DNA of 9,773 nt, from IMG/VR virus record IMGVR_UViG_2541047698_000005; one strand, given 5' to 3'. The position numbers were made by a program, and so were the translations under genes. Shown here piece by piece: positions 1-9,773 of this stretch. Each line of letters starts with the position of its first letter. The stretch's first letter is position 1. This DNA is from a virus. Taxonomy: Duplodnaviria; Heunggongvirae; Uroviricota; Caudoviricetes. The notes beneath the pieces are model-generated. The model was not told the origin of the DNA and did no database searches. It saw nothing but the letters and a program-made list of their open reading frames with translations.

Positions 1-113
1 GGATGATGTCGCTGTTGCTGACAGTGGTAATACGTTGACGGGGCAATATGCAGTTCGCTGCATAGCGGTCCGACCCCGTACTGCTCACGCAGCTTATCCA
101 GCAGTGGCATCAT
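1..113 (-). CDS. IS3-family transposase OrfB (DDE catalytic subunit), N-terminal fragment truncated by the window edge
   Basis: Hand translation of the minus strand in the -1 frame relative to orfA gives [37 protein letters not shown]..., which I recognise as a typical IS3-family OrfB N-terminus. It overlaps the orfA stop at the A6 slippery site. Confidence 0.7.
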
Positions 114-436
114 TTTTTCCAGAGGCGGTCGAACTCCGCCTTCGCAAAATAAGCGGAAGCCTGGCGAAGGATATCGTTACTGCGGCGCAGTTCACGATTT
201 TCACGTTCCAGCTCTTTCAGACGCTGACGTTCAGCGGTGGTGAGCCCTCCATCACCGCCCCCGGTATCCCGCTCATGCTGGCGAACCCAGACACGCAGAG
301 TCTCCGGCGTACAGCCAATCTTTGGAGCAATGGAACAAATTGTCGCCCATTGTGAGTCATATTCGCTCTGACTTTCCAGAACCATACGGACTGCCCGTTG
401 ACGGACTTCGGGGGAAAAACGAGTATTTTTAGTCAT
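110..436 (-). CDS. IS3-family transposase OrfA (HTH DNA-binding subunit), 108 aa
   Basis: The ORF track protein [22 protein letters not shown]...[36 protein letters not shown] has a helix-turn-helix followed by a leucine-zipper-like segment, typical of IS3-family OrfA. It ends at an A6 slippery run (plus-strand T-run 113..118) where the -1 frameshift into orfB occurs in this family. Confidence 0.88.
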
Positions 437-490
437 CCTGTTTACCTCTTTCTCAGGAAGTTTAGTCTCCAGGATTCCCGGGGCGGTTCA

Positions 491-682
491 GGACTTCAGC
501 ATCGCAACAGCTTAAGTGCGCAGCTCAACATGAAATGTCATGAGTTTGACCAGAAGAAAGACATGGCGAGCTTCTGCGGACAAGGGCTGGCAGCATGGCG
601 CTATACGAAGCCAGTGTTGGTCGCTGAGATTAACTCCCTGGCTAACCAGCTGCAGATTACGATCCCCGGGCTTCCGGGATGA
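491..682 (+). pseudogene. 3' portion of an uncharacterised gene immediately abutting the IS terminus (likely IS-disrupted); alternatively an intact 50-aa ORF starting at ATG 531
   Basis: The frame is open from the IS boundary at 490 to the stop at 680..682 (…GLQHRNSLSAQLNMKCHEFDQKKDMASFCGQGLAAWRYTKPVLVAEINSLANQLQITIPGLPG). Its stop overlaps the start of the next ORF in an ATGA motif. The 5' part of ORF-track entry 398..682 lies inside the IS and is not part of the gene. Confidence 0.4.
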
Positions 683-936
683 GTGATCGTGTTATTGAAT
701 GCGCCTCCAGAGCGGGGCGCGACTTCTCAGAGTTCATGAAAGGCGAGAAGGGCATGATGGAAGCATTGGCCTCGGTGGATGAGTTTGGCGAGCAGCTGCG
801 CCTCAACGGCTGTGTCAATCATCACTTTGTTAGCTACATGATGCGGAACTCGATCATGCAGGCATTCATGGACATGGCAAAAGCCGAGAGGAAAGAAGAG
901 CGCCGGCGTAAGCGAGCGGAAGCAAAAGCGAAGTAG
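679..936 (+). CDS. Hypothetical protein, 85 aa, with a strongly basic Lys/Arg/Glu-rich C-terminal tail
   Basis: ORF MSDRVIECASRAGRDFSEFMKGEKGMMEALASVDEFGEQLRLNGCVNHHFVSYMMRNSIMQAFMDMAKAERKEERRRKRAEAKAK. The start overlaps the stop of the upstream frame (ATGA at 679..682), suggesting translational coupling. An alternative internal start is the ATGATG at M26/M27, preceded by a GAGAAGGG Shine-Dalgarno-like motif. No family recognised. Confidence 0.5.
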   Translation: MSDRVIECASRAGRDFSEFMKGEKGMMEALASVDEFGEQLRLNGCVNHHFVSYMMRNSIMQAFMDMAKAERKEERRRKRAEAKAK

Positions 937-1222
937 CCATTACAAAGCCTATCTACGGGTGGGCTTGATAATGGCTTATACCCTACACGGGATAACTTAA
1001 CTGATATCCCTTTTAAAGGATAAAGGTATTCAAGCCTGACACATCATGCGCTGTATCGTCGCCGTGTTCCCGTATTAACAGAGACCGTAGCCCGACGGGG
1101 AACTCCTTCTGCGCGAGTGTGCGGGAATAATCAAAAACGATGCACACCGGGGTTACCGGGTACACATATTTCATCATGCCAGCGAGTCCGGTTCTGGCAC
1201 GGAAGAAACCGGACGTTATGAT

Positions 1223-1633
1223 TTAGTGCGGAAATATTTGTGTAGTGTTCTGAATGTTCTCAGTAAAGAGTAATGAATTATCAAAGGTATAGTAATACCT
1301 TTTGTTTTCGTGGATATTTGTAATCCATCTGAAAACCCCTGCTGTAGCAAGATTTTTCCTGTATTCGTAAAATGATAACTCTCCTGATTTGAATCCTTTT
1401 AAGGTGGCTTCTATAAGGCATTTATTTTTTGAAAATCTTACATTTACAACCTTACCCTGTCCTTTTATTAAAACCGTATTATCGTTTTCAAGAACAAGAT
1501 GAATATTCTCTGTGGCTAAATAGTAAATGTAATGTGAGACATTGTGACGTTTTAGTTCAGAATAAAACCAGTGATAGTTTAAATTATTTCGCACTTTATC
1601 GAATATTTGTTTAAAAATGGCAACCTGAGCCAT
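1223..1633 (-). CDS. Prophage accessory protein, YbcV/YdfO-like (DUF1398-type, assignment from memory), 136 aa; strongly AT-rich gene
   Basis: Long minus-strand ORF in a visibly AT-rich block that contrasts with the GC-rich head genes. The preferred start is the second Met (ATG at 1633..1631 on the minus strand), which is preceded by GGAAGGT at 6-nt spacing; the first Met (1648) has no Shine-Dalgarno motif. The size (136 aa) and the position next to a ylcI-like gene near cos match the ybcV/ydfO arrangement I recall from E. coli K-12 DLP12 and Qin prophages. Confidence 0.7.
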
Positions 1634-1690
1634 TGTAGTACCTTCCATGTGATATGAGGGGGCGTAGTCTGCACGATTATCTAGATTGCT

Positions 1691-1924
1691 TCAATCTGGT
1701 CTAACCTGTTTTCTGAGCAATTCAGTAATGTCACTCTTTTCTTTGTTTGCTTCAGGCGAAACTCTTTTTTCTGAGCACAGTCTCCGGCGGCAGGCTTCAA
1801 TGACCCAGGCTGAGAAATTCCCGGACCCTTTTTGAACAAGAGCGATGTTAATTTGTTCAATCATTTGGTTAGGAAAGCGGATGTTGCGGGTTGTTGTTCT
1901 GCGGGTTCTGTTCTTCGTTGACAT
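1691..1924 (-). CDS. YlcI/YnfO-family small protein (DUF3950-like) with a predicted ribbon-helix-helix DNA-binding fold, 77 aa
   Basis: ORF MSTKNRTRRTTTRNIRFPNQMIEQINIALVQKGSGNFSAWVIEACRRRL... The pattern of a basic N-terminal arm, a short beta-strand (RNIRF), helix (NQMIEQINIAL), Gly-rich turn (GSGNFS) and second helix (AWVIEACRRRL) fits a CopG/Arc-type RHH. It sits immediately upstream of cos/Nu1, as ylcI does upstream of nohD in DLP12 (from memory). It is co-directional with the DUF1398-like gene, 43 bp away. Confidence 0.7.
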   Translation of the reverse strand: MSTKNRTRRTTTRNIRFPNQMIEQINIALVQKGSGNFSAWVIEACRRRLCSEKRVSPEANKEKSDITELLRKQVRPD

Positions 1925-2059
1925 GAGGTTGCCCTGTATTCAGTGTCGCTGATTTGTATTGTCTGAAGTTGTTTTTACGTTAAGTTGATGCAGATCAATT
2001 AATACGATACCTGCGTCATAATTGATTATTTGACGTGGTTTGATGGCGTAGATGCACGT

Positions 2060-2300
2060 TGTGACATGTAGATGATAATTATTATCATTTTTCGGGTCCT
2101 TTCCGGCGATCCGACAGGTTACGGGGCGGCGACCTCGCGGGTTTTCGCTATTTATGAAAATTTTCCGGTTTAAGGCGTTTCCGTTCTTCTTCGTCGTAAC
2201 TTAATGTTTTTATTTAAAATACCCCCTGAAAAGAAAGGAAACGACAGGTGCTGAAAACGAACTTTTGGGCCTCTGTCGTTTCCTTTCTCTGTTTTGGGCC
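2060..2300. other. cos: Lambda-type cohesive end site (cos) with cosQ, cosN and cosB contiguous (joined ends)
   Basis: The sequence ...TCCGACAGGTTACG|GGGCGGCGACCTCGCGGGTTTTCGCTATTTATGAAAATTTTCCGG... matches the joined right and left ends of phage lambda as I recall them. The 12-nt cohesive-end sequence GGGCGGCGACCT is at 2124..2135. The cosQ region is the AT-rich GATGATAATTATTATCATTT segment around 2071..2090. Confidence 0.9.
2170..2290 (+). promoter_or_regulatory. cosB: cosB: terminase small-subunit binding elements R3, R2, R1 with an intervening AT-rich IHF site (I1)
   Basis: There are three copies of the CGTTTCC core: GGCGTTTCCGTTC (about 2173..2186, R3), GGAAACGACAGG (about 2237..2248, R2, inverted) and CTGTCGTTTCCTTTC (about 2273..2287, R1). 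R3 and R2 are separated by the AT-rich run TAACTTAATGTTTTTATTTAAAAT. This matches lambda cosB architecture. Confidence 0.8.
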
Positions 2301-2312
2301 GTGGAATGAACA

Positions 2313-2832
2313 ATGGAAGTCAACAAAAAGCAGCTGGCTGACATTTTCGGTGCGAGTATCCGTACCATTCAGAACTGGCAGGAACAGGGAATGCCCGTTC
2401 TGCGAGGCGGTGGCAAGGGTAATGAGGTGCTTTATGACTCTGCCGCCGTTATAAAATGGTATGCCGAAAGGGATGCTGAAATTGAGAACGAAAAGCTGCG
2501 CCGGGAGGTTGAAGAACTGCTGCAGGCCAGCGAGACAGATCTCCAGCCAGGGACTATTGAGTACGAACGCCATCGACTTACGCGTGCGCAGGCCGATGCA
2601 CAGGAGCTGAAAAATGCCAGAGACTCCGCTGAAGTGGTGGAAACCGCATTCTGTACTTTCGTGCTGTCGCGTATCGCAGGTGAAATTGCCAGTATTCTCG
2701 ACGGGATCCCCCTGTCGGTGCAGCGGCGTTTTCCGGAACTGGAAAACCGACATGTTGATTTCCTGAAACGGGATATCATCAAAGCCATGAACAAAGCAGC
2801 CGCGCTGGATGAACTGATACCGGGGTTGCTGA

Positions 2833-2858
<26 letters not shown>
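2313..2858 (+). CDS. nu1: Terminase small subunit gpNu1 (winged-HTH cosB-binding protein), 181 aa
   Basis: The ORF MEVNKKQLADIFGASIRTIQNWQEQGMPVLRGGGKGNEVLYDSAAVIKWYAE... is essentially the lambda Nu1 sequence as I recall it. It lies directly downstream of cosB and overlaps the start of A. Confidence 0.95.
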
Positions 2859-6539
<3,681 letters not shown>

Positions 6540-6559
<20 letters not shown>

Positions 6560-7859
6560 TCTCCCGCATATTACCAGTATGGCCTTTAATGAGCCGCTGT
6601 TGCTTGAACCCGCCTATGCGCGGGTTTTCTTTTGTGCGCTTGCAGGCCAGCTTGGGATCAGCCGCCTGACGGATGCGGTATCCGGCGACAGCCTGACTGC
6701 CGGAGAGGCACCCGCGGCGCTGGCGTTATCCGTTGATGATGACGGACCACGGCAGGCCCGCAGTTATCAGGTCATGAACGGCATCGCCGTGCTGCCGGTG
6801 TCCGGCACGCTGGTCAGTCGGACGCGAGCGCTGCAGCCGTATTCGGGGATGACCGGTTACAACGGCATTATCGCCCGTCTGCAACAGGCTGCCAGCGACC
6901 CGATGGTGGACGGCATTCTGCTCGATATGGATACGCCAGGCGGGATGGTGGCAGGGGCATTTGACTGCGCTGACATCATCGCCCGTGTGCGTGACATAAA
7001 GCCGGTATGGGCGCTGGCCAATGACATGAACTGCAGCGCAGGTCAGCTGCTTGCCAGTGCCGCCTCCCGGCGTCTGGTCACGCAGACCGCCCGGACAGGC
7101 TCCATCGGCGTCATGATGGCTCACAGTAATTACGGTGCTGCGCTGGAGAAACAGGGCGTGGAAATCACGCTGATTTACAGCGGCAGCCATAAGGTGGATG
7201 GCAACCCCTACAGCCATCTACCGGATGATGTCCGGGAAACACTGCAGTCCCGGATGGATGCAACCCGCCGGATGTTTGCACAGAAGGTGTCGGCATATAC
7301 CGGCCTGTCCGTGCAGGCTGTGCTGGATACCGAGGCTGCAGTGTACAGCGGTCAGGAGGCCATTGATGCCGGACTGGCTGATGAACTTGTTAACAGTACC
7401 GATGCGATCACCATCATGCGTGATGCACTGGATGCACGTAAATCCCGTCTCTCAGGAGGGCGAATGACCAAAGAGACTCAATCAACAACTGTTTCAGCCA
7501 CTGCTTCGCAGGCTGACGTTACTGGCGTGGTGCAAGCGACGGAGGGCGAGAACGCCAGCGCTGCGCAGCCGGACGTGAACGCGCAGATCACCGCAGCTGT
7601 TGCGGCAGAAAACAGTCGCATTATGGGGATCCTCAACTGTGAGGAGGCTCACGGACGCGAAGAACAGGCACGCGTGCTGGCCGAAACCCCCGGTATGACC
7701 GTGGAAACGGCCCGCCGCATTCTGGCAGTTGCACCACAGAGTGCACAGGCGCGCAGTGACACTGCGCTGGATCGTCTGATGCAGGGGGCACCGGCACCGC
7801 TGGCTGCAGGTAACCCGGCATCTGATGCCGTTAACGATTTGCTGAACACACCAGTGTAA
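6540..7859 (+). CDS. C: Prohead protease/scaffold gpC (S49/ClpP-like serine peptidase), 439 aa, GTG start inside the 3' end of B
   Basis: The ORF track gives a 484-aa frame from 6405, but the N-terminus MTAELRNLPHITSMAFNEPLLLEPAYARVFF begins at the GTG at 6540..6542, giving 439 aa, the lambda C length. The peptidase region contains GIAVLPVSGTL...DTPGGMV. Confidence 0.9.
7254..7859 (+). CDS. nu3: Scaffolding protein gpNu3, in-frame internal start within C, 201 aa
   Basis: An ATG at 7254..7256 is in frame with C, 714 nt after the C start, exactly as for lambda Nu3 nested in C. It reads MDATRRMFAQKV... Confidence 0.8.
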   Translation: MDATRRMFAQKVSAYTGLSVQAVLDTEAAVYSGQEAIDAGLADELVNSTDAITIMRDALDARKSRLSGGRMTKETQSTTVSATASQADVTGVVQATEGENASAAQPDVNAQITAAVAAENSRIMGILNCEEAHGREEQARVLAETPGMTVETARRILAVAPQSAQARSDTALDRLMQGAPAPLAAGNPASDAVNDLLNTPV

Positions 7860-7868
7860 GGGATGTTT

Positions 7869-8201
7869 ATGACGAGCAAAGAAACCTTTACCCATTACCA
7901 GCCGCTGGGCAACAGTGACCCGGCACATACGGCAACCGCGCCCGGCGGATTGAGTGCGAAAGCGCCTGCAATGACCCCGCTGATGCTGGATACCTCCACC
8001 CGTAAGCTGGTTGCGTGGGATGGCACCACCGACGGTGCTGCCGTTGGCATTCTGGCGGTTGATGCTGACCAGACCAGCACCACGCTGACGTTCTACAAGT
8101 CCGGCACGTTCCGTTATGAGGATGTGCTCTGGCCGGAGGCTGCCAGCGACGAGACGAAGAAACGGACCGCGTTTGCCGGAACGGCAATCAGCATCGTTTA
8201 A
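7869..8201 (+). CDS. D: Head decoration protein gpD, 110 aa
   Basis: [43 protein letters not shown]...[11 protein letters not shown] matches lambda D. The ORF track starts two codons earlier (7863), but the lambda-type start is the ATG at 7869. Confidence 0.93.
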
Positions 8202-8221
8202 CCTTACCCTTCATCACTAAA

Positions 8222-8244
8222 GGCCGCCTGTGCGGCTTTTTTTA
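8222..8244 (+). terminator. Terminator-like GC hairpin plus T-tract in the D-E intergenic region (probable attenuator or RNA-stability element inside the late operon)
   Basis: GGCCGC-CTGT-GCGGC at 8222..8236 (5-6 bp GC stem, 4-nt loop) is followed immediately by TTTTTTT at 8237..8243. Confidence 0.5.
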
Positions 8245-8255
8245 CGGGATTTTTT

Positions 8256-9281
8256 ATGTCGATGTACACAACCGCCCAGCTGCTGGCGGCAAATGAGAAG
8301 AAATTTAAGTTTGATCCGCTGTTTCTGCGTCTCTTTTTCCGTGAGAGCTATCCCTTCACCACGGAGAAAGTCTATCTCTCACAAATTCCGGGACTGGTAA
8401 ACATGGCGCTGTACGTTTCGCCGATTGTTTCCGGTGAGGTTATCCGCTCCCGTGGCGGCTCCACCTCTGAATTTACACCGGGATATGTCAAGCCGAAGCA
8501 TGAGGTGAATCCGCAGATGACCCTGCGTCGCCTGCCGGATGAAGATCCGCAGAATCTGGCGGACCCGGCTTACCGCCGCCGTCGCATCATCATGCAGAAC
8601 ATGCGAGACGAAGAGCTGGCCATTGCTCAGGTCGAAGAGATGCAGGCCGTTTCTGCCGTGCTTAAGGGCAAATACACCATGACCGGTGAAGCCTTCGATC
8701 CGGTTGAAGTGGATATGGGCCGCAGTGCGGCGAACAACATCACACAGTCCGGTGGTACGGAGTGGAGCAAGCGTGACAAGTCCACGTATGACCCGACCGA
8801 CGATATCGAAGCCTATGCGCTGAACGCCAGCGGCGTGGTGAATATCATCGTGTTTGATCCGAAAGGCAGGGCGCTGTTCCGTTCCTTCAAAGCCGTCAAG
8901 GAGAAGCTGGATACCCGTCGCGGCTCTAATTCCGAGCTGGAGACAGCGGTAAAAGACCTGGGCGAAGCGGTGTCCTATAAGGGGATGTATGGCGATACGG
9001 CGATCGTCGTGTATTCCGGACAGTACGTGGAAAACGACGTCAAAAAGAACTTCCTTCCGGACAACACGATGGTGCTGGGGAACACTCAGGCACGCGGTCT
9101 GCGCACCTATGGCTGCATTCAGGATGCGGACGCACAGCGCGAAGGTATTAACGCTTCTGCCCGCTACCCGAAAAACTGGGTGACCACCGGCGATCCGGCG
9201 CGTGAGTTCACCATGATTCAGTCAGCACCGCTGATGCTGCTGGCTGACCCTGATGCGTTCGTGTCCGTACAACTGGCGTAA
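8256..9281 (+). CDS. E: Major capsid protein gpE, 341 aa
   Basis: A 341-aa ORF, MSMYTTAQLLAANEKKFKFDPLFLRLFFRESYPFTTEKVYLSQIPGLVNMALYVSPIVSGEV..., with lambda E size and sequence (from memory). Confidence 0.95.
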   Translation: MSMYTTAQLLAANEKKFKFDPLFLRLFFRESYPFTTEKVYLSQIPGLVNMALYVSPIVSGEVIRSRGGSTSEFTPGYVKPKHEVNPQMTLRRLPDEDPQNLADPAYRRRRIIMQNMRDEELAIAQVEEMQAVSAVLKGKYTMTGEAFDPVEVDMGRSAANNITQSGGTEWSKRDKSTYDPTDDIEAYALNASGVVNIIVFDPKGRALFRSFKAVKEKLDTRRGSNSELETAVKDLGEAVSYKGMYGDTAIVVYSGQYVENDVKKNFLPDNTMVLGNTQARGLRTYGCIQDADAQREGINASARYPKNWVTTGDPAREFTMIQSAPLMLLADPDAFVSVQLA

Positions 9282-9283
9282 TC

Positions 9284-9310
9284 ATGGCCCTTCGGGGCCA
9301 TTTTCTCTTT
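9284..9310 (+). terminator. Terminator-like hairpin with TTCG tetraloop and T-rich tail directly after the E stop codon
   Basis: ATGGCCC-TTCG-GGGCCAT at 9284..9301 (7-bp stem, UUCG-type loop) is followed by TTTCTCTTT. It lies between the E stop (9279..9281) and the FI Shine-Dalgarno motif GGAGGAG. Confidence 0.5.
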
Positions 9311-9322
9311 GTGGAGGAGTCC

Positions 9323-9718
9323 ATGACGAAAGATGAACTGATTGCCCGTCTTCAGGTGCTGGGTGAGCAACTGAACCGTGATGTCAGCCTGACGGGGACG
9401 AAAGAAGAACTGGTGCTCCGTGTGGCAGAGCTGGAAGAGGAGCTTGATGACACGGATGACGCTGCCGGTCAGGACACATCTGTCAGCCCGGAAAATGCGC
9501 TGACCGGACATGAAAATGAGGTTGTATCAGCGCAGCCGGATACCGTGACTGATACGGCTGATCTGGTCACGGTTGTGGCACTGGTGACGCTGCATACTGA
9601 TGCACTTCACGCCACGCGGGATGAGGCTGTGGCATTTGTGCTGCCGGGAACGGCGTTCCGTGTCTCTGCCGGTGTGGCAGCTGAAATGACAGAACGTGGC
9701 CTGGCCAGAATGCAATAA
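9323..9718 (+). CDS. FI: DNA-packaging / head assembly protein gpFI, 131 aa
   Basis: MTKDELIARLQVLGEQLNRDVSLTGTKEELVLRVAELEEELDDTDDAAGQD... matches lambda FI. The start is the ATG at 9323, preceded by GGAGGAG; the ORF-track frame extends 13 codons further upstream without a Shine-Dalgarno motif. Confidence 0.9.
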   Translation: MTKDELIARLQVLGEQLNRDVSLTGTKEELVLRVAELEEELDDTDDAAGQDTSVSPENALTGHENEVVSAQPDTVTDTADLVTVVALVTLHTDALHATRDEAVAFVLPGTAFRVSAGVAAEMTERGLARMQ

Positions 9719-9729
9719 CGGGAGGCGCT

Positions 9730-9773
9730 GTGGCTGATTTCGATAACCTGTTCGATGCTGCCATTGCCCGCGC
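9730..9773 (+). CDS. FII: Head-tail connector protein gpFII, N-terminal fragment truncated by the window end
   Basis: A GTG at 9730 is followed by ADFDNLFDAAIAR, matching the lambda FII N-terminus (MADFDNLFDAAIARA), and is preceded by GGGAGG. Confidence 0.75.
   Translation, partial: MADFDNLFDAAIAR

Follow-up and report, generated by a model that had tools for sequence, protein, structure and literature searches.

Exchangeable cargo beside a lambda-type cos site, and a conserved 108-nt element that divides it

Results

Layout of the interval to the left of cos

We analysed a 9,773-nt stretch of DNA from a tailed virus of the class Caudoviricetes (IMG/VR record IMGVR_UViG_2541047698_000005; "the window" throughout), and in particular positions 491-2123, an interval that reaches from the terminus of an insertion sequence (IS) at base 490 to the nick of the cohesive-end site, cosN, at 2123/2124. 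A preliminary description of this DNA, made from the sequence alone, had delimited the same interval, and both of its ends prove to be exact landmarks. The layout was established from a listing of open reading frames (ORFs) over the whole window together with Pfam and BLAST matches, and it makes 491-2123 very probably the non-essential right-end accessory region of a Lambdavirus-type prophage, lying between the lysis cassette and a fully lambda-like cos. The features are as follows.

1..490, minus strand: left end of an IS3-family element of IS3411/IS629 type (Pfam HTH_Tnp_1, BLAST, ALIL pseudoknot)
491..682, plus strand: 3' remnant of a KilA-N/ORF11CD3 gene, codons 103-165 (63 codons; Pfam ORF11CD3, PHROG 129/10441)
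679..936, plus strand: ORF of 85 amino acids, orf85 (PHROG 875, E = 3e-54)
1047..1154, plus strand: conserved structured element, equivalent to lambda 46868-46975, with sharp recurrent edges; it separates two cargo slots
1186..1214, plus strand: second conserved hairpin, GTCCGGT-N15-ACCGGAC, with an invariant GGAAGAAA in its loop
1223..1648, minus strand: DUF1398 gene of ybcV/ydfO/lambdap78 type (Pfam DUF1398, E = 3e-43)
1691..1924, minus strand: DUF3950 gene of ylcI/ynfO type (Pfam)
1762..2123, no strand: segment left of cos, 92-99% identical to the lambda right end and DLP12 in alignments; 1762 is a recurrent mosaic joint within the ylcI-type gene
1994..2026, no strand: 13-nt inverted repeat ATCAATTAATACG / CGTCATAATTGAT, 70-100 bp upstream of the ylcI-type start, identical in lambda
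2094..2100, plus strand: cosQ, GGGTCCT, identical to lambda 48473-48479
2112..2135, plus strand: cosN, identical to lambda over its whole length
2176..2288, plus strand: cosB, with repeats R3 (2176-2193), R2 (2232-2247, inverted) and R1 (2273-2288)
2313..9773, plus strand: lambda-type head module Nu1, A, W, B, C/Nu3, D, E and FI (partial), from ORFs and lambda identity

In this arrangement the 3' end of Rz is followed by slot 1, the 108-nt element with its hairpin, slot 2, a conserved stretch made up of the ylcI-type gene's 5' half and upstream region, and cosQ-cosN-cosB-Nu1. Slot 1 here holds the KilA-N/ORF11CD3 gene, cut by the IS, and orf85, both on the late-operon strand; slot 2 holds two items of the other strand, the low-GC (guanine plus cytosine) DUF1398 gene and the ylcI-type tail.

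The packaging site has all the parts of the Lambdavirus type, namely a cosN with a 12-nt cohesive end, a cosQ about 30 bp upstream of it, whose role we take to be the one established for lambda cos, and the cosB repeats. The cohesive end, GGGCGGCGACCT, matches exactly at 2124-2135 and is the left cohesive end of lambda, nicked at 2123/2124; R3, R2 and R1 have the same sequence as in lambda and lie upstream of Nu1. The head module had been called lambda-identical in the preliminary description, which is correct as a close match and too strong as strict identity: the Nu1, A, W, B, C, D and E proteins are between 96.8% (C) and 99.4% (A) identical to those of lambda, and nucleotide identity is 97.1%. 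The window's Nu1 (2313-2858) is 100% identical to NohD of the K-12 prophage DLP12 (positions 4826-5371 of our locus L085).

Comparison with lambda and its relatives across cos

The head module had also been thought to meet, at a mosaic boundary at cos, a region of cryptic-prophage type unlike the lambda right end. When the right end of lambda was joined to its left end (NC_001416) and aligned to the window, a single alignment at 97.1% identity spanned cos, pairing window 1762-9773 with lambda 48141-48502 followed by 1-7655, and in bins of 100 bp identity was 92-99% on either side of 2123/2124. On the left of cos a further 362 bp resemble lambda and DLP12, and the likeness stops at base 1762, within the ylcI-type gene. 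Another alignment, at 82.5% identity, pairs window 1047-1707 with lambda 46868-47527 and covers the DUF1398 gene and lambdap78, which encode homologous proteins, so that neither the boundary nor the supposed unlikeness of the upstream content to lambda can be upheld. Relative to lambda the joints lie at about 1762 and at 1047, and there is no mosaic boundary at cos.

Over 46.4-48.5 kb the lambda right end (Rz-bor-lambdap78-lambdap79-unannotated ylcI-like ORF-cos) carries the 108-nt element, a DUF1398 gene, a ylcI-type gene, cosQ, cosN, cosB and Nu1 in the order and orientation found in the window. Left of the position of 1047, lambda has bor (and Rz) whereas the window has the KilA-N/ORF11CD3 gene and orf85; lambda 47528-48140, about 610 extra bases that include lambdap79/ybcW, is missing from the window; and the window has a different ylcI-type tail and the inserted IS. 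The ylcI-type gene of lambda is a 64-amino-acid ORF of YlcI/YnfO type on the minus strand (48303-48109) that agrees with the window gene at 48 of the first 49 residues; it is annotated in the lambda-derived phage O276 and omitted from the reference annotation of lambda in NC_001416. Because the lambda right end carries both types of gene, in the order seen in DLP12, the genes described as being of cryptic-prophage type are of lambda type.

DLP12 of Escherichia coli K-12 (rzpD-bor-ybcV-ybcW-ylcI-cos-nohD) has the lambda gene order and shares its gene families with the window. Genes of ylcI/ybcV type are indeed present in the window, as DUF3950 and DUF1398 members, and it is the contrast drawn between cryptic prophages and lambda that falls away. 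DLP12 aligns to the window from the same base, 1762, into gene A at 98.2% identity; it has bor and ybcW, as in the lambda layout, and is without most of gene A and the head genes. A homology of 3353 bp between lambda and DLP12 that spans cos has been published (PMC3945230). In prophages of the Qin type (...cspI-ynfN-gnsB-ydfO-ynfO-cos-nohA) the DUF1398 gene adjoins the ylcI-type gene with no ybcW between them, as in the window, and one unbroken alignment at about 91% runs from window 1185 into Nu1 and includes the long YnfO-type tail, which is shared. Unlike the window, these prophages have no 108-nt element, and cold-shock and GnsB genes stand between their lysis genes and ydfO. The window has the lambda/DLP12 layout with KilA-N and orf85 in the slot of bor and with the ybcW segment missing as in Qin; by its sequence it combines a Qin-like slot with a cos-proximal segment like that of lambda and DLP12.

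The closest matches to the window are Escherichia phage PhiR49_1 (PV340568) and a prophage of E. coli ST3 (NZ_CP121087), which are 99.9-100% identical over 491/493-9773 and have the same gene content, except that their KilA-N gene is intact and they have no IS at this position. The interval without the IS is also found in several E. coli prophages at 99.9-100% identity.

Variability of the interval where the head module is constant

The interval from Rz to Nu1 was catalogued in 80 IMG/VR loci that share at least 99% identity with the window in Nu1, so that the head module was held constant. The catalogue consists of the best 80 and the best 120 loci among the matches, mostly E. coli prophages; gene contents were assigned with a small reference set, and the left anchor was the Rz or the lysozyme gene, present in 66 loci. 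In these 66 the interval measures 450-4350 bp and yields 32 gene-content strings, which leave more than 20 real gene contents once trivial differences in ORF calling are removed. Its occupants are bor, KilA-N/ORF11CD3 with orf85, Rha/ORF11CD3, DUF1398, ybcW, YlcI, CspI, YnfN, GnsB, a TonB_C lipoprotein, PerC, DUF6979, DUF4406 and IS66. The full arrangement of the window is rare (2 of the 66 loci). Of 5426 complete E. coli genomes, 111 have 80% or more of its version of the interval, and 2222 have that share of the window as a whole. The earlier proposal of an exchangeable cargo hotspot between the lysis genes and cos is borne out by these figures, and the conserved synteny that had been named as evidence to the contrary did not appear when the interval was anchored on Nu1 and the lysis genes.

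Homology to window 491-2320 ends at recurrent points: 936, 1019/1047, 1154, 1185, 1762/1790, 2067-2073, 2090-2093 and 2121. By pattern of homology the loci fall as follows.

Unbroken from 490: 2 loci
From 930-936: 10 loci
From 1185: 9 loci
1047 (or 1019)-1154 plus 1762-2320: 23 loci
Lambda-type pattern: 1 locus
1154, then 2090-2093: 10 loci
1154, then 2067-2073: 5 loci
Only from 1762-1790: 7 loci
Only from 2121: 2 loci (L036, L067)

The true joints are not at cos: they fall within the ylcI-type gene and where the conserved element begins and ends. Another 118 loci were collected with the element as anchor. In them slot 1, from Rz to the element, is empty or contains bor, KilA-N with orf85, or Rha; slot 2, from the element to cos, is empty or contains YlcI, DUF1398 with YlcI, p78 with p79 and YlcI, or a TonB_C lipoprotein with or without YlcI. 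The states of the two slots are found in most combinations: they assort independently.

Several of these occupants resemble morons, defined by Juhala, Hendrix and colleagues as extra genes of some phages that are absent from close relatives, deviate in GC content, carry a promoter and a terminator of their own and are expressed from the repressed prophage (PMC3594210); bor, in this very interval, is the classic example (PMC3594210). DUF1398, bor, KilA-N with orf85, the TonB_C lipoprotein and others are present in some and absent from other loci whose Nu1 is at least 99% identical. The window's DUF1398 gene also shares the deviant GC and the orientation opposite to the host operon that characterise lambdoid morons (Juhala et al. 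2000; Cumby et al. 2012, PMC3594210), whereas KilA-N and orf85 differ from them in lying on the late-operon strand with a normal GC content of about 53.5%.

The DUF1398 and ylcI-type genes

The assignment of DUF1398 is secure (147 bits against a Pfam cut-off of 22; PDB 2HH8, YdfO, matches at E = 1e-69). At 31.7% GC, and 30% GC at third codon positions (GC3), against 52-58% GC and 55-68% GC3 in Nu1, A, B and E, the gene bears out the sharp variation in base composition already remarked on in the preliminary description. PHROG 413 and the RefSeq record of lambda label the family "head protein", which is probably wrong, because lambdap78 is dispensable by CRISPR interference (CRISPRi) and lies among antisense accessory genes.

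In YlcI proteins about 50 N-terminal residues are conserved and the C-terminal tails differ, a pattern to be expected if a joint recurs at 1762, inside the gene. The N-terminal part is probably a ribbon-helix-helix (RHH) domain, judging from an AlphaFold2 model with an extended stretch at 13-18 and helices at 19-32 and 37-54 (pLDDT, the model's confidence score, 83-86 in the core, mean 69); the only Foldseek match of the model in the PDB was an RHH protein, at a non-significant E = 9, and a sequence search against solved structures gave no match. The inverted repeat at 1994-2026 may be an operator for this putative RHH protein, a suggestion made from its sequence and position. The DUF1398 gene lies 42 bp 3' of the ylcI-type gene on the same minus strand, and the YlcI tail varies with the content downstream. 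This layout resembles, by analogy, that of an antitoxin-toxin pair; many phages have YlcI alone.

A conserved 108-nt element between the slots

The most commonly shared piece of the interval in the locus catalogue is 1047-1154. It occurs in 432 phage records, near full length in 431, including lambda, Shiga toxin (Stx) phages of 933W type and Salmonella phage ES18, and in 11,720 copies in 4577 of the 5426 complete E. coli genomes (84%); no annotated feature underlies it in any of the 12 E. coli examples listed. Where Rz is found in the 118 element-oriented loci, it lies upstream of the element on the same strand, and in the commonest arrangement the element directly follows it. In loci L033 and L034 the two are about 19 bp apart. 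A pattern scan of GTDB for divergent copies returned mostly lambda control-DNA contamination, with Escherichia and Raoultella as the only real hosts. The lambda right end also turned up in contigs of about 3.5 kb or 48.4 kb in unrelated assemblies (L089-L123, from Pseudomonas, Cohnella, Flavobacterium and an Arcanobacterium "plasmid"), and database entries for YlcI proteins name Staphylococcus, Bacillus and a spider as their source (P0015, P0027, P0059, P0082); these misplaced sequences look like contamination by sequencing control DNA.

A MAFFT alignment of 39 distinct variants was folded with RNAalifold, giving two helices, TGTATCGT/ACGATGCA (helix 1) and TGTTCCCGTAT/GTGCGGGAATA (helix 2). 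In this structure 98.1% of alignment cells form pairs; sliding the partners by one to three columns lowers the figure to 32-66%. Compensatory double changes occur at six pairs, a number reached in 1 of 500 shuffles; fourteen cells carry compensatory changes and there are 20 extra pair types against 15.4 expected, neither of which was reached in 500 shuffles, all of these being counts that ignore kinship among the variants. Intermediate states are preserved (C-G, U.G and U-A at one pair; G-C in lambda at another), and the covarying columns are outside those fixed by the search pattern. With 120 G.U cells and 7 A.C cells, the structure fits an RNA of the plus strand, that is, of late-operon sense, and not of the minus strand. 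Scored with a covariance model, the window copy reaches 123.6 bits and those of lambda, DLP12, the Stx phages and ES18 exceed 100 bits; the model detects no copy in Qin-type loci. By eye, GTTCCC (1066-1071, the 5' strand of helix 2) could pair either with an inner GGGAAC (1099-1104) or with its helix-2 partner GGGAA (1124-1128), giving alternative folds; the ES18 copy, in which helix 2 contains two C.A mismatches, keeps the inner pairing.

The second hairpin, at 1186-1214, follows about 30-55 nt downstream in 187 of 202 copies of the element and shows covariation of CCGG/CCGG to CCTG/CAGG. Qin-type prophages retain it and lack the element, and their homology to the window begins at 1185. A GGA in its loop resembles sites of the CsrA type.

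Conservation begins six bases before helix 1 and ends just after it, which leaves no room for a conserved promoter or terminator belonging to the element; as an RNA it would be a part of the late transcript.

Searches for a known identity were negative. With permissive filters and E values of up to 1 allowed, 1047-1215 gave no match to any Rfam family. The anti-sRNAs of lambdoid prophages (AsxR/AgvB group), which are convergent and 51-60 nt long and come from a moron site, 3' of PR', that separates Q/PR' from the lysis genes (PMC4104026), were considered and rejected, since the element sits after Rz and has no Rfam match. Nothing on an RNA at this site appears in PMC12315714, PMC13190303 or PMC7067206; the element is undescribed in Rfam and the literature searched, which is not proof of novelty. 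A protein-coding role, either for a 54-amino-acid minus-strand ORF annotated in PhiR49_1 or for short plus-strand ORFs, was also rejected: variable columns are spread 21/20/19 over the codon positions, there are indels of one base, and each of the six frames is interrupted by stops in the lambda copy. The PhiR49_1-type ORF matches nothing in Pfam or PHROG.

Discussion

Probable exchange of cargo between anchors

The interval is best understood as accessory DNA in which the cargo of two slots is replaced between conserved anchors. We infer that exchange would occur by homologous recombination at these anchors, between co-resident lambdoid prophages and infecting phages, catalysed by Rad52-like recombinases of the phage or by RecA and stimulated by the double-strand cut at cos, while insertions such as the IS would add further variation. 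In published experiments, homologous recombination dependent on recombinases of the phage or the host lets lambda acquire a marker placed in ybcV of DLP12 (PMC3945230), and 10 of 19 such junctions adjoin cos, where the packaging cut stimulates exchange (PMC3945230). The region would tolerate such swaps because plaque formation requires none of it and the late transcript, modified by Q, reads through it. CRISPRi of lambda found bor and lambdap78 non-essential (PMC10695390), and the polarity seen when the plus-strand gene lambdap79 was blocked (PMC10695390) implies that late transcription runs through the region into the head genes.

Several observations weigh against this interpretation. Recombination at the anchors is deduced from where homology ends, and the recurrent joints could be a few old events spread clonally; the IMG/VR loci, being mostly E. 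coli prophages, are not independent samples. Some variants, such as a 105-bp filler in the commonest class and the IS66 insertion, differ without flanking homology, so illegitimate events contribute too. A consensus scan of the interval for promoters and terminators did no better than on shuffled sequence (5 promoter-like sites against 3.8 expected, with none upstream of the ylcI-type gene on the minus strand), and the minus-strand genes are accordingly only candidates for self-contained morons.

As stated in the preliminary description, the hotspot was already known, since both morons and mosaic exchange with defective prophages are established (PMC3594210, PMC3945230) and the interval itself had been sequenced in PhiR49_1. 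The structured 108-nt element may be the only new item.

Illegitimate insertion as a possible main source of variation

The variation might instead arise mainly by independent insertion and deletion of self-contained morons through illegitimate recombination, the anchors being leftover backbone. The DUF1398 gene has the composition expected of foreign DNA, and IS3-family and IS66 insertions and unrelated fillers are found between the anchors. We nevertheless think this account rather unlikely, for the same joints recur with many different neighbours, the slots assort independently and homologous exchange in exactly this region has been demonstrated experimentally (PMC3945230). The two processes are not mutually exclusive.

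What the conserved element might be

We tentatively suggest, with a little less than even confidence, that the element and its hairpin are an undescribed cis-acting structured RNA of the lambdoid late transcript that acts after the lysis cassette, and that they also serve as a patch of homology for independent swaps of the two slots. What it would do there, whether as a site of processing, stability or protein binding, is a guess made with low confidence. Processing and stability hairpins in phage polycistronic mRNAs are exemplified by the RNase III sites of T7 and by lambda sib. The likeness of the element to these intercistronic hairpins is one of analogy, in that its predicted fold is an irregular bipartite helix (7-8 bp, an internal loop, 11 bp), conserved in mRNA sense and lying between functional blocks of genes within a long phage transcript; it differs from them in having no sequence or Rfam relationship to either. 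If it is a functional RNA, the element is an overlooked feature of the best-studied phage, and it would provide a concrete reason for the exchange of the flanking cargo as separate cassettes.

Its conservation could also have a cause other than RNA function, if the element were a small protein gene (the 54-amino-acid ORF), a piece of the bor promoter or a linker for recombination. Single-sequence folding energy is unremarkable (z = -0.95), and the abundant copy of 933W type has a G.G mismatch at one covarying pair. Copies of lambda type contain on the minus strand a sigma-70-like sequence, TGGACA-N15-TACAAT, directed at bor (lambda 46882-46908; HK629, L242 1480-1506, where it is annotated), and PhiR49_1 carries the minus-strand ORF annotation. 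Against this stand the absence of the promoter match from the window variant and most others, with many copies accompanied by no bor; the lack of codon periodicity and the other signs against translation given above; and above all the six compensatory pairs, the near-complete pairing and the excess of G.U over A.C cells. On balance we regard an element without RNA function as improbable, though by no means negligibly so.

Unlikely readings: a boundary at cos, or a conserved block

A discrete mosaic boundary at cos, with the lambda head module to its right and a non-lambda, cryptic-prophage-type region to its left, is in our judgement very unlikely. Cutting at cos does stimulate recombination (PMC3945230), and homology does break near cos in certain relatives that have the same Nu1: L036 and L067 lose it at 2121, about 10 loci at 2090-2093 and 5 loci at 2067-2073. 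In the window, however, lambda identity is equally high on both sides within a single spanning alignment, as it is with DLP12, and lambda has genes of DUF1398 and YlcI type at equivalent places. That the interval is a conserved syntenic block across lambdoid phages has next to no probability. Taken singly, the 108-nt element, the cos region and the 5' half of ylcI are very common, but among loci with near-identical Nu1 the interval varies in length and content as catalogued above, and few E. coli genomes have the window's version.

The insertion sequence and other features of the window

The IS had been assigned to this accessory region; it occupies 1-490, outside the interval, and interrupts the KilA-N gene. 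It has the features of the IS3 family, namely an orfA (436..110, minus strand) whose helix-turn-helix is Pfam HTH_Tnp_1, a programmed -1 frameshift signal (the ALIL pseudoknot, at 39-155, 120 bits in an Rfam scan) and a terminal inverted repeat, TGAACCGCCCC, the reverse complement of 480-490, which places the IS terminus at base 490. Annotated copies of IS3411/IS629 are the best BLAST matches (99-99.8% identity, ending at about 490-500), and only one end of the IS is inside the window. Compared with the intact gene of 498 nt in PhiR49_1 and the E. coli ST3 prophage, the KilA-N gene is cut after codon 102. Because none of the 5426 complete E. coli genomes has a place that matches 80% or more of window 1-700, which spans the junction, the insertion is private to the window's source within that set.

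The product of orf85 has no Pfam match, and in the locus catalogue the gene travels with the KilA-N gene. PADLOC defence models gave nothing convincing on the cargo proteins; KilA-N resembles the candidate system PDC-S22 weakly and partially, and the other four were unmatched. Directly 3' of the orf85 stop, at 935-976, is a 15-nt inverted repeat, AGCCATTACAAAGCC / GGCTTGATAATGGCT; 936 is a recurrent joint.

Just left of cosQ, a palindrome at 2059-2088, GATGATAATTATTATCAT, agrees by hand count with about 15 of 19 positions of the Fur-box consensus, and a similar sequence is present in lambda. It is overlapped by a promoter-like site on the plus strand, GTGACA-16-TATCAT (10 of 12 matches), directed toward cos and Nu1, in a scan that was overall no better than chance. 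An Rfam scan of 1-2400 returned the frameshift pseudoknot of the IS and, besides it, only two weak miRNA-like matches at 2224-2298, which were rejected as the known inverted repeat R2/R1 of cosB.

Upstream of the region that the window covers, its closest relatives have another cargo site of the same prophages, between the genes for the Q antiterminator and the holin; there an OmpC/OmpD-type porin gene lies on the opposite strand (L001 1677-2819; L003 2673-3755).

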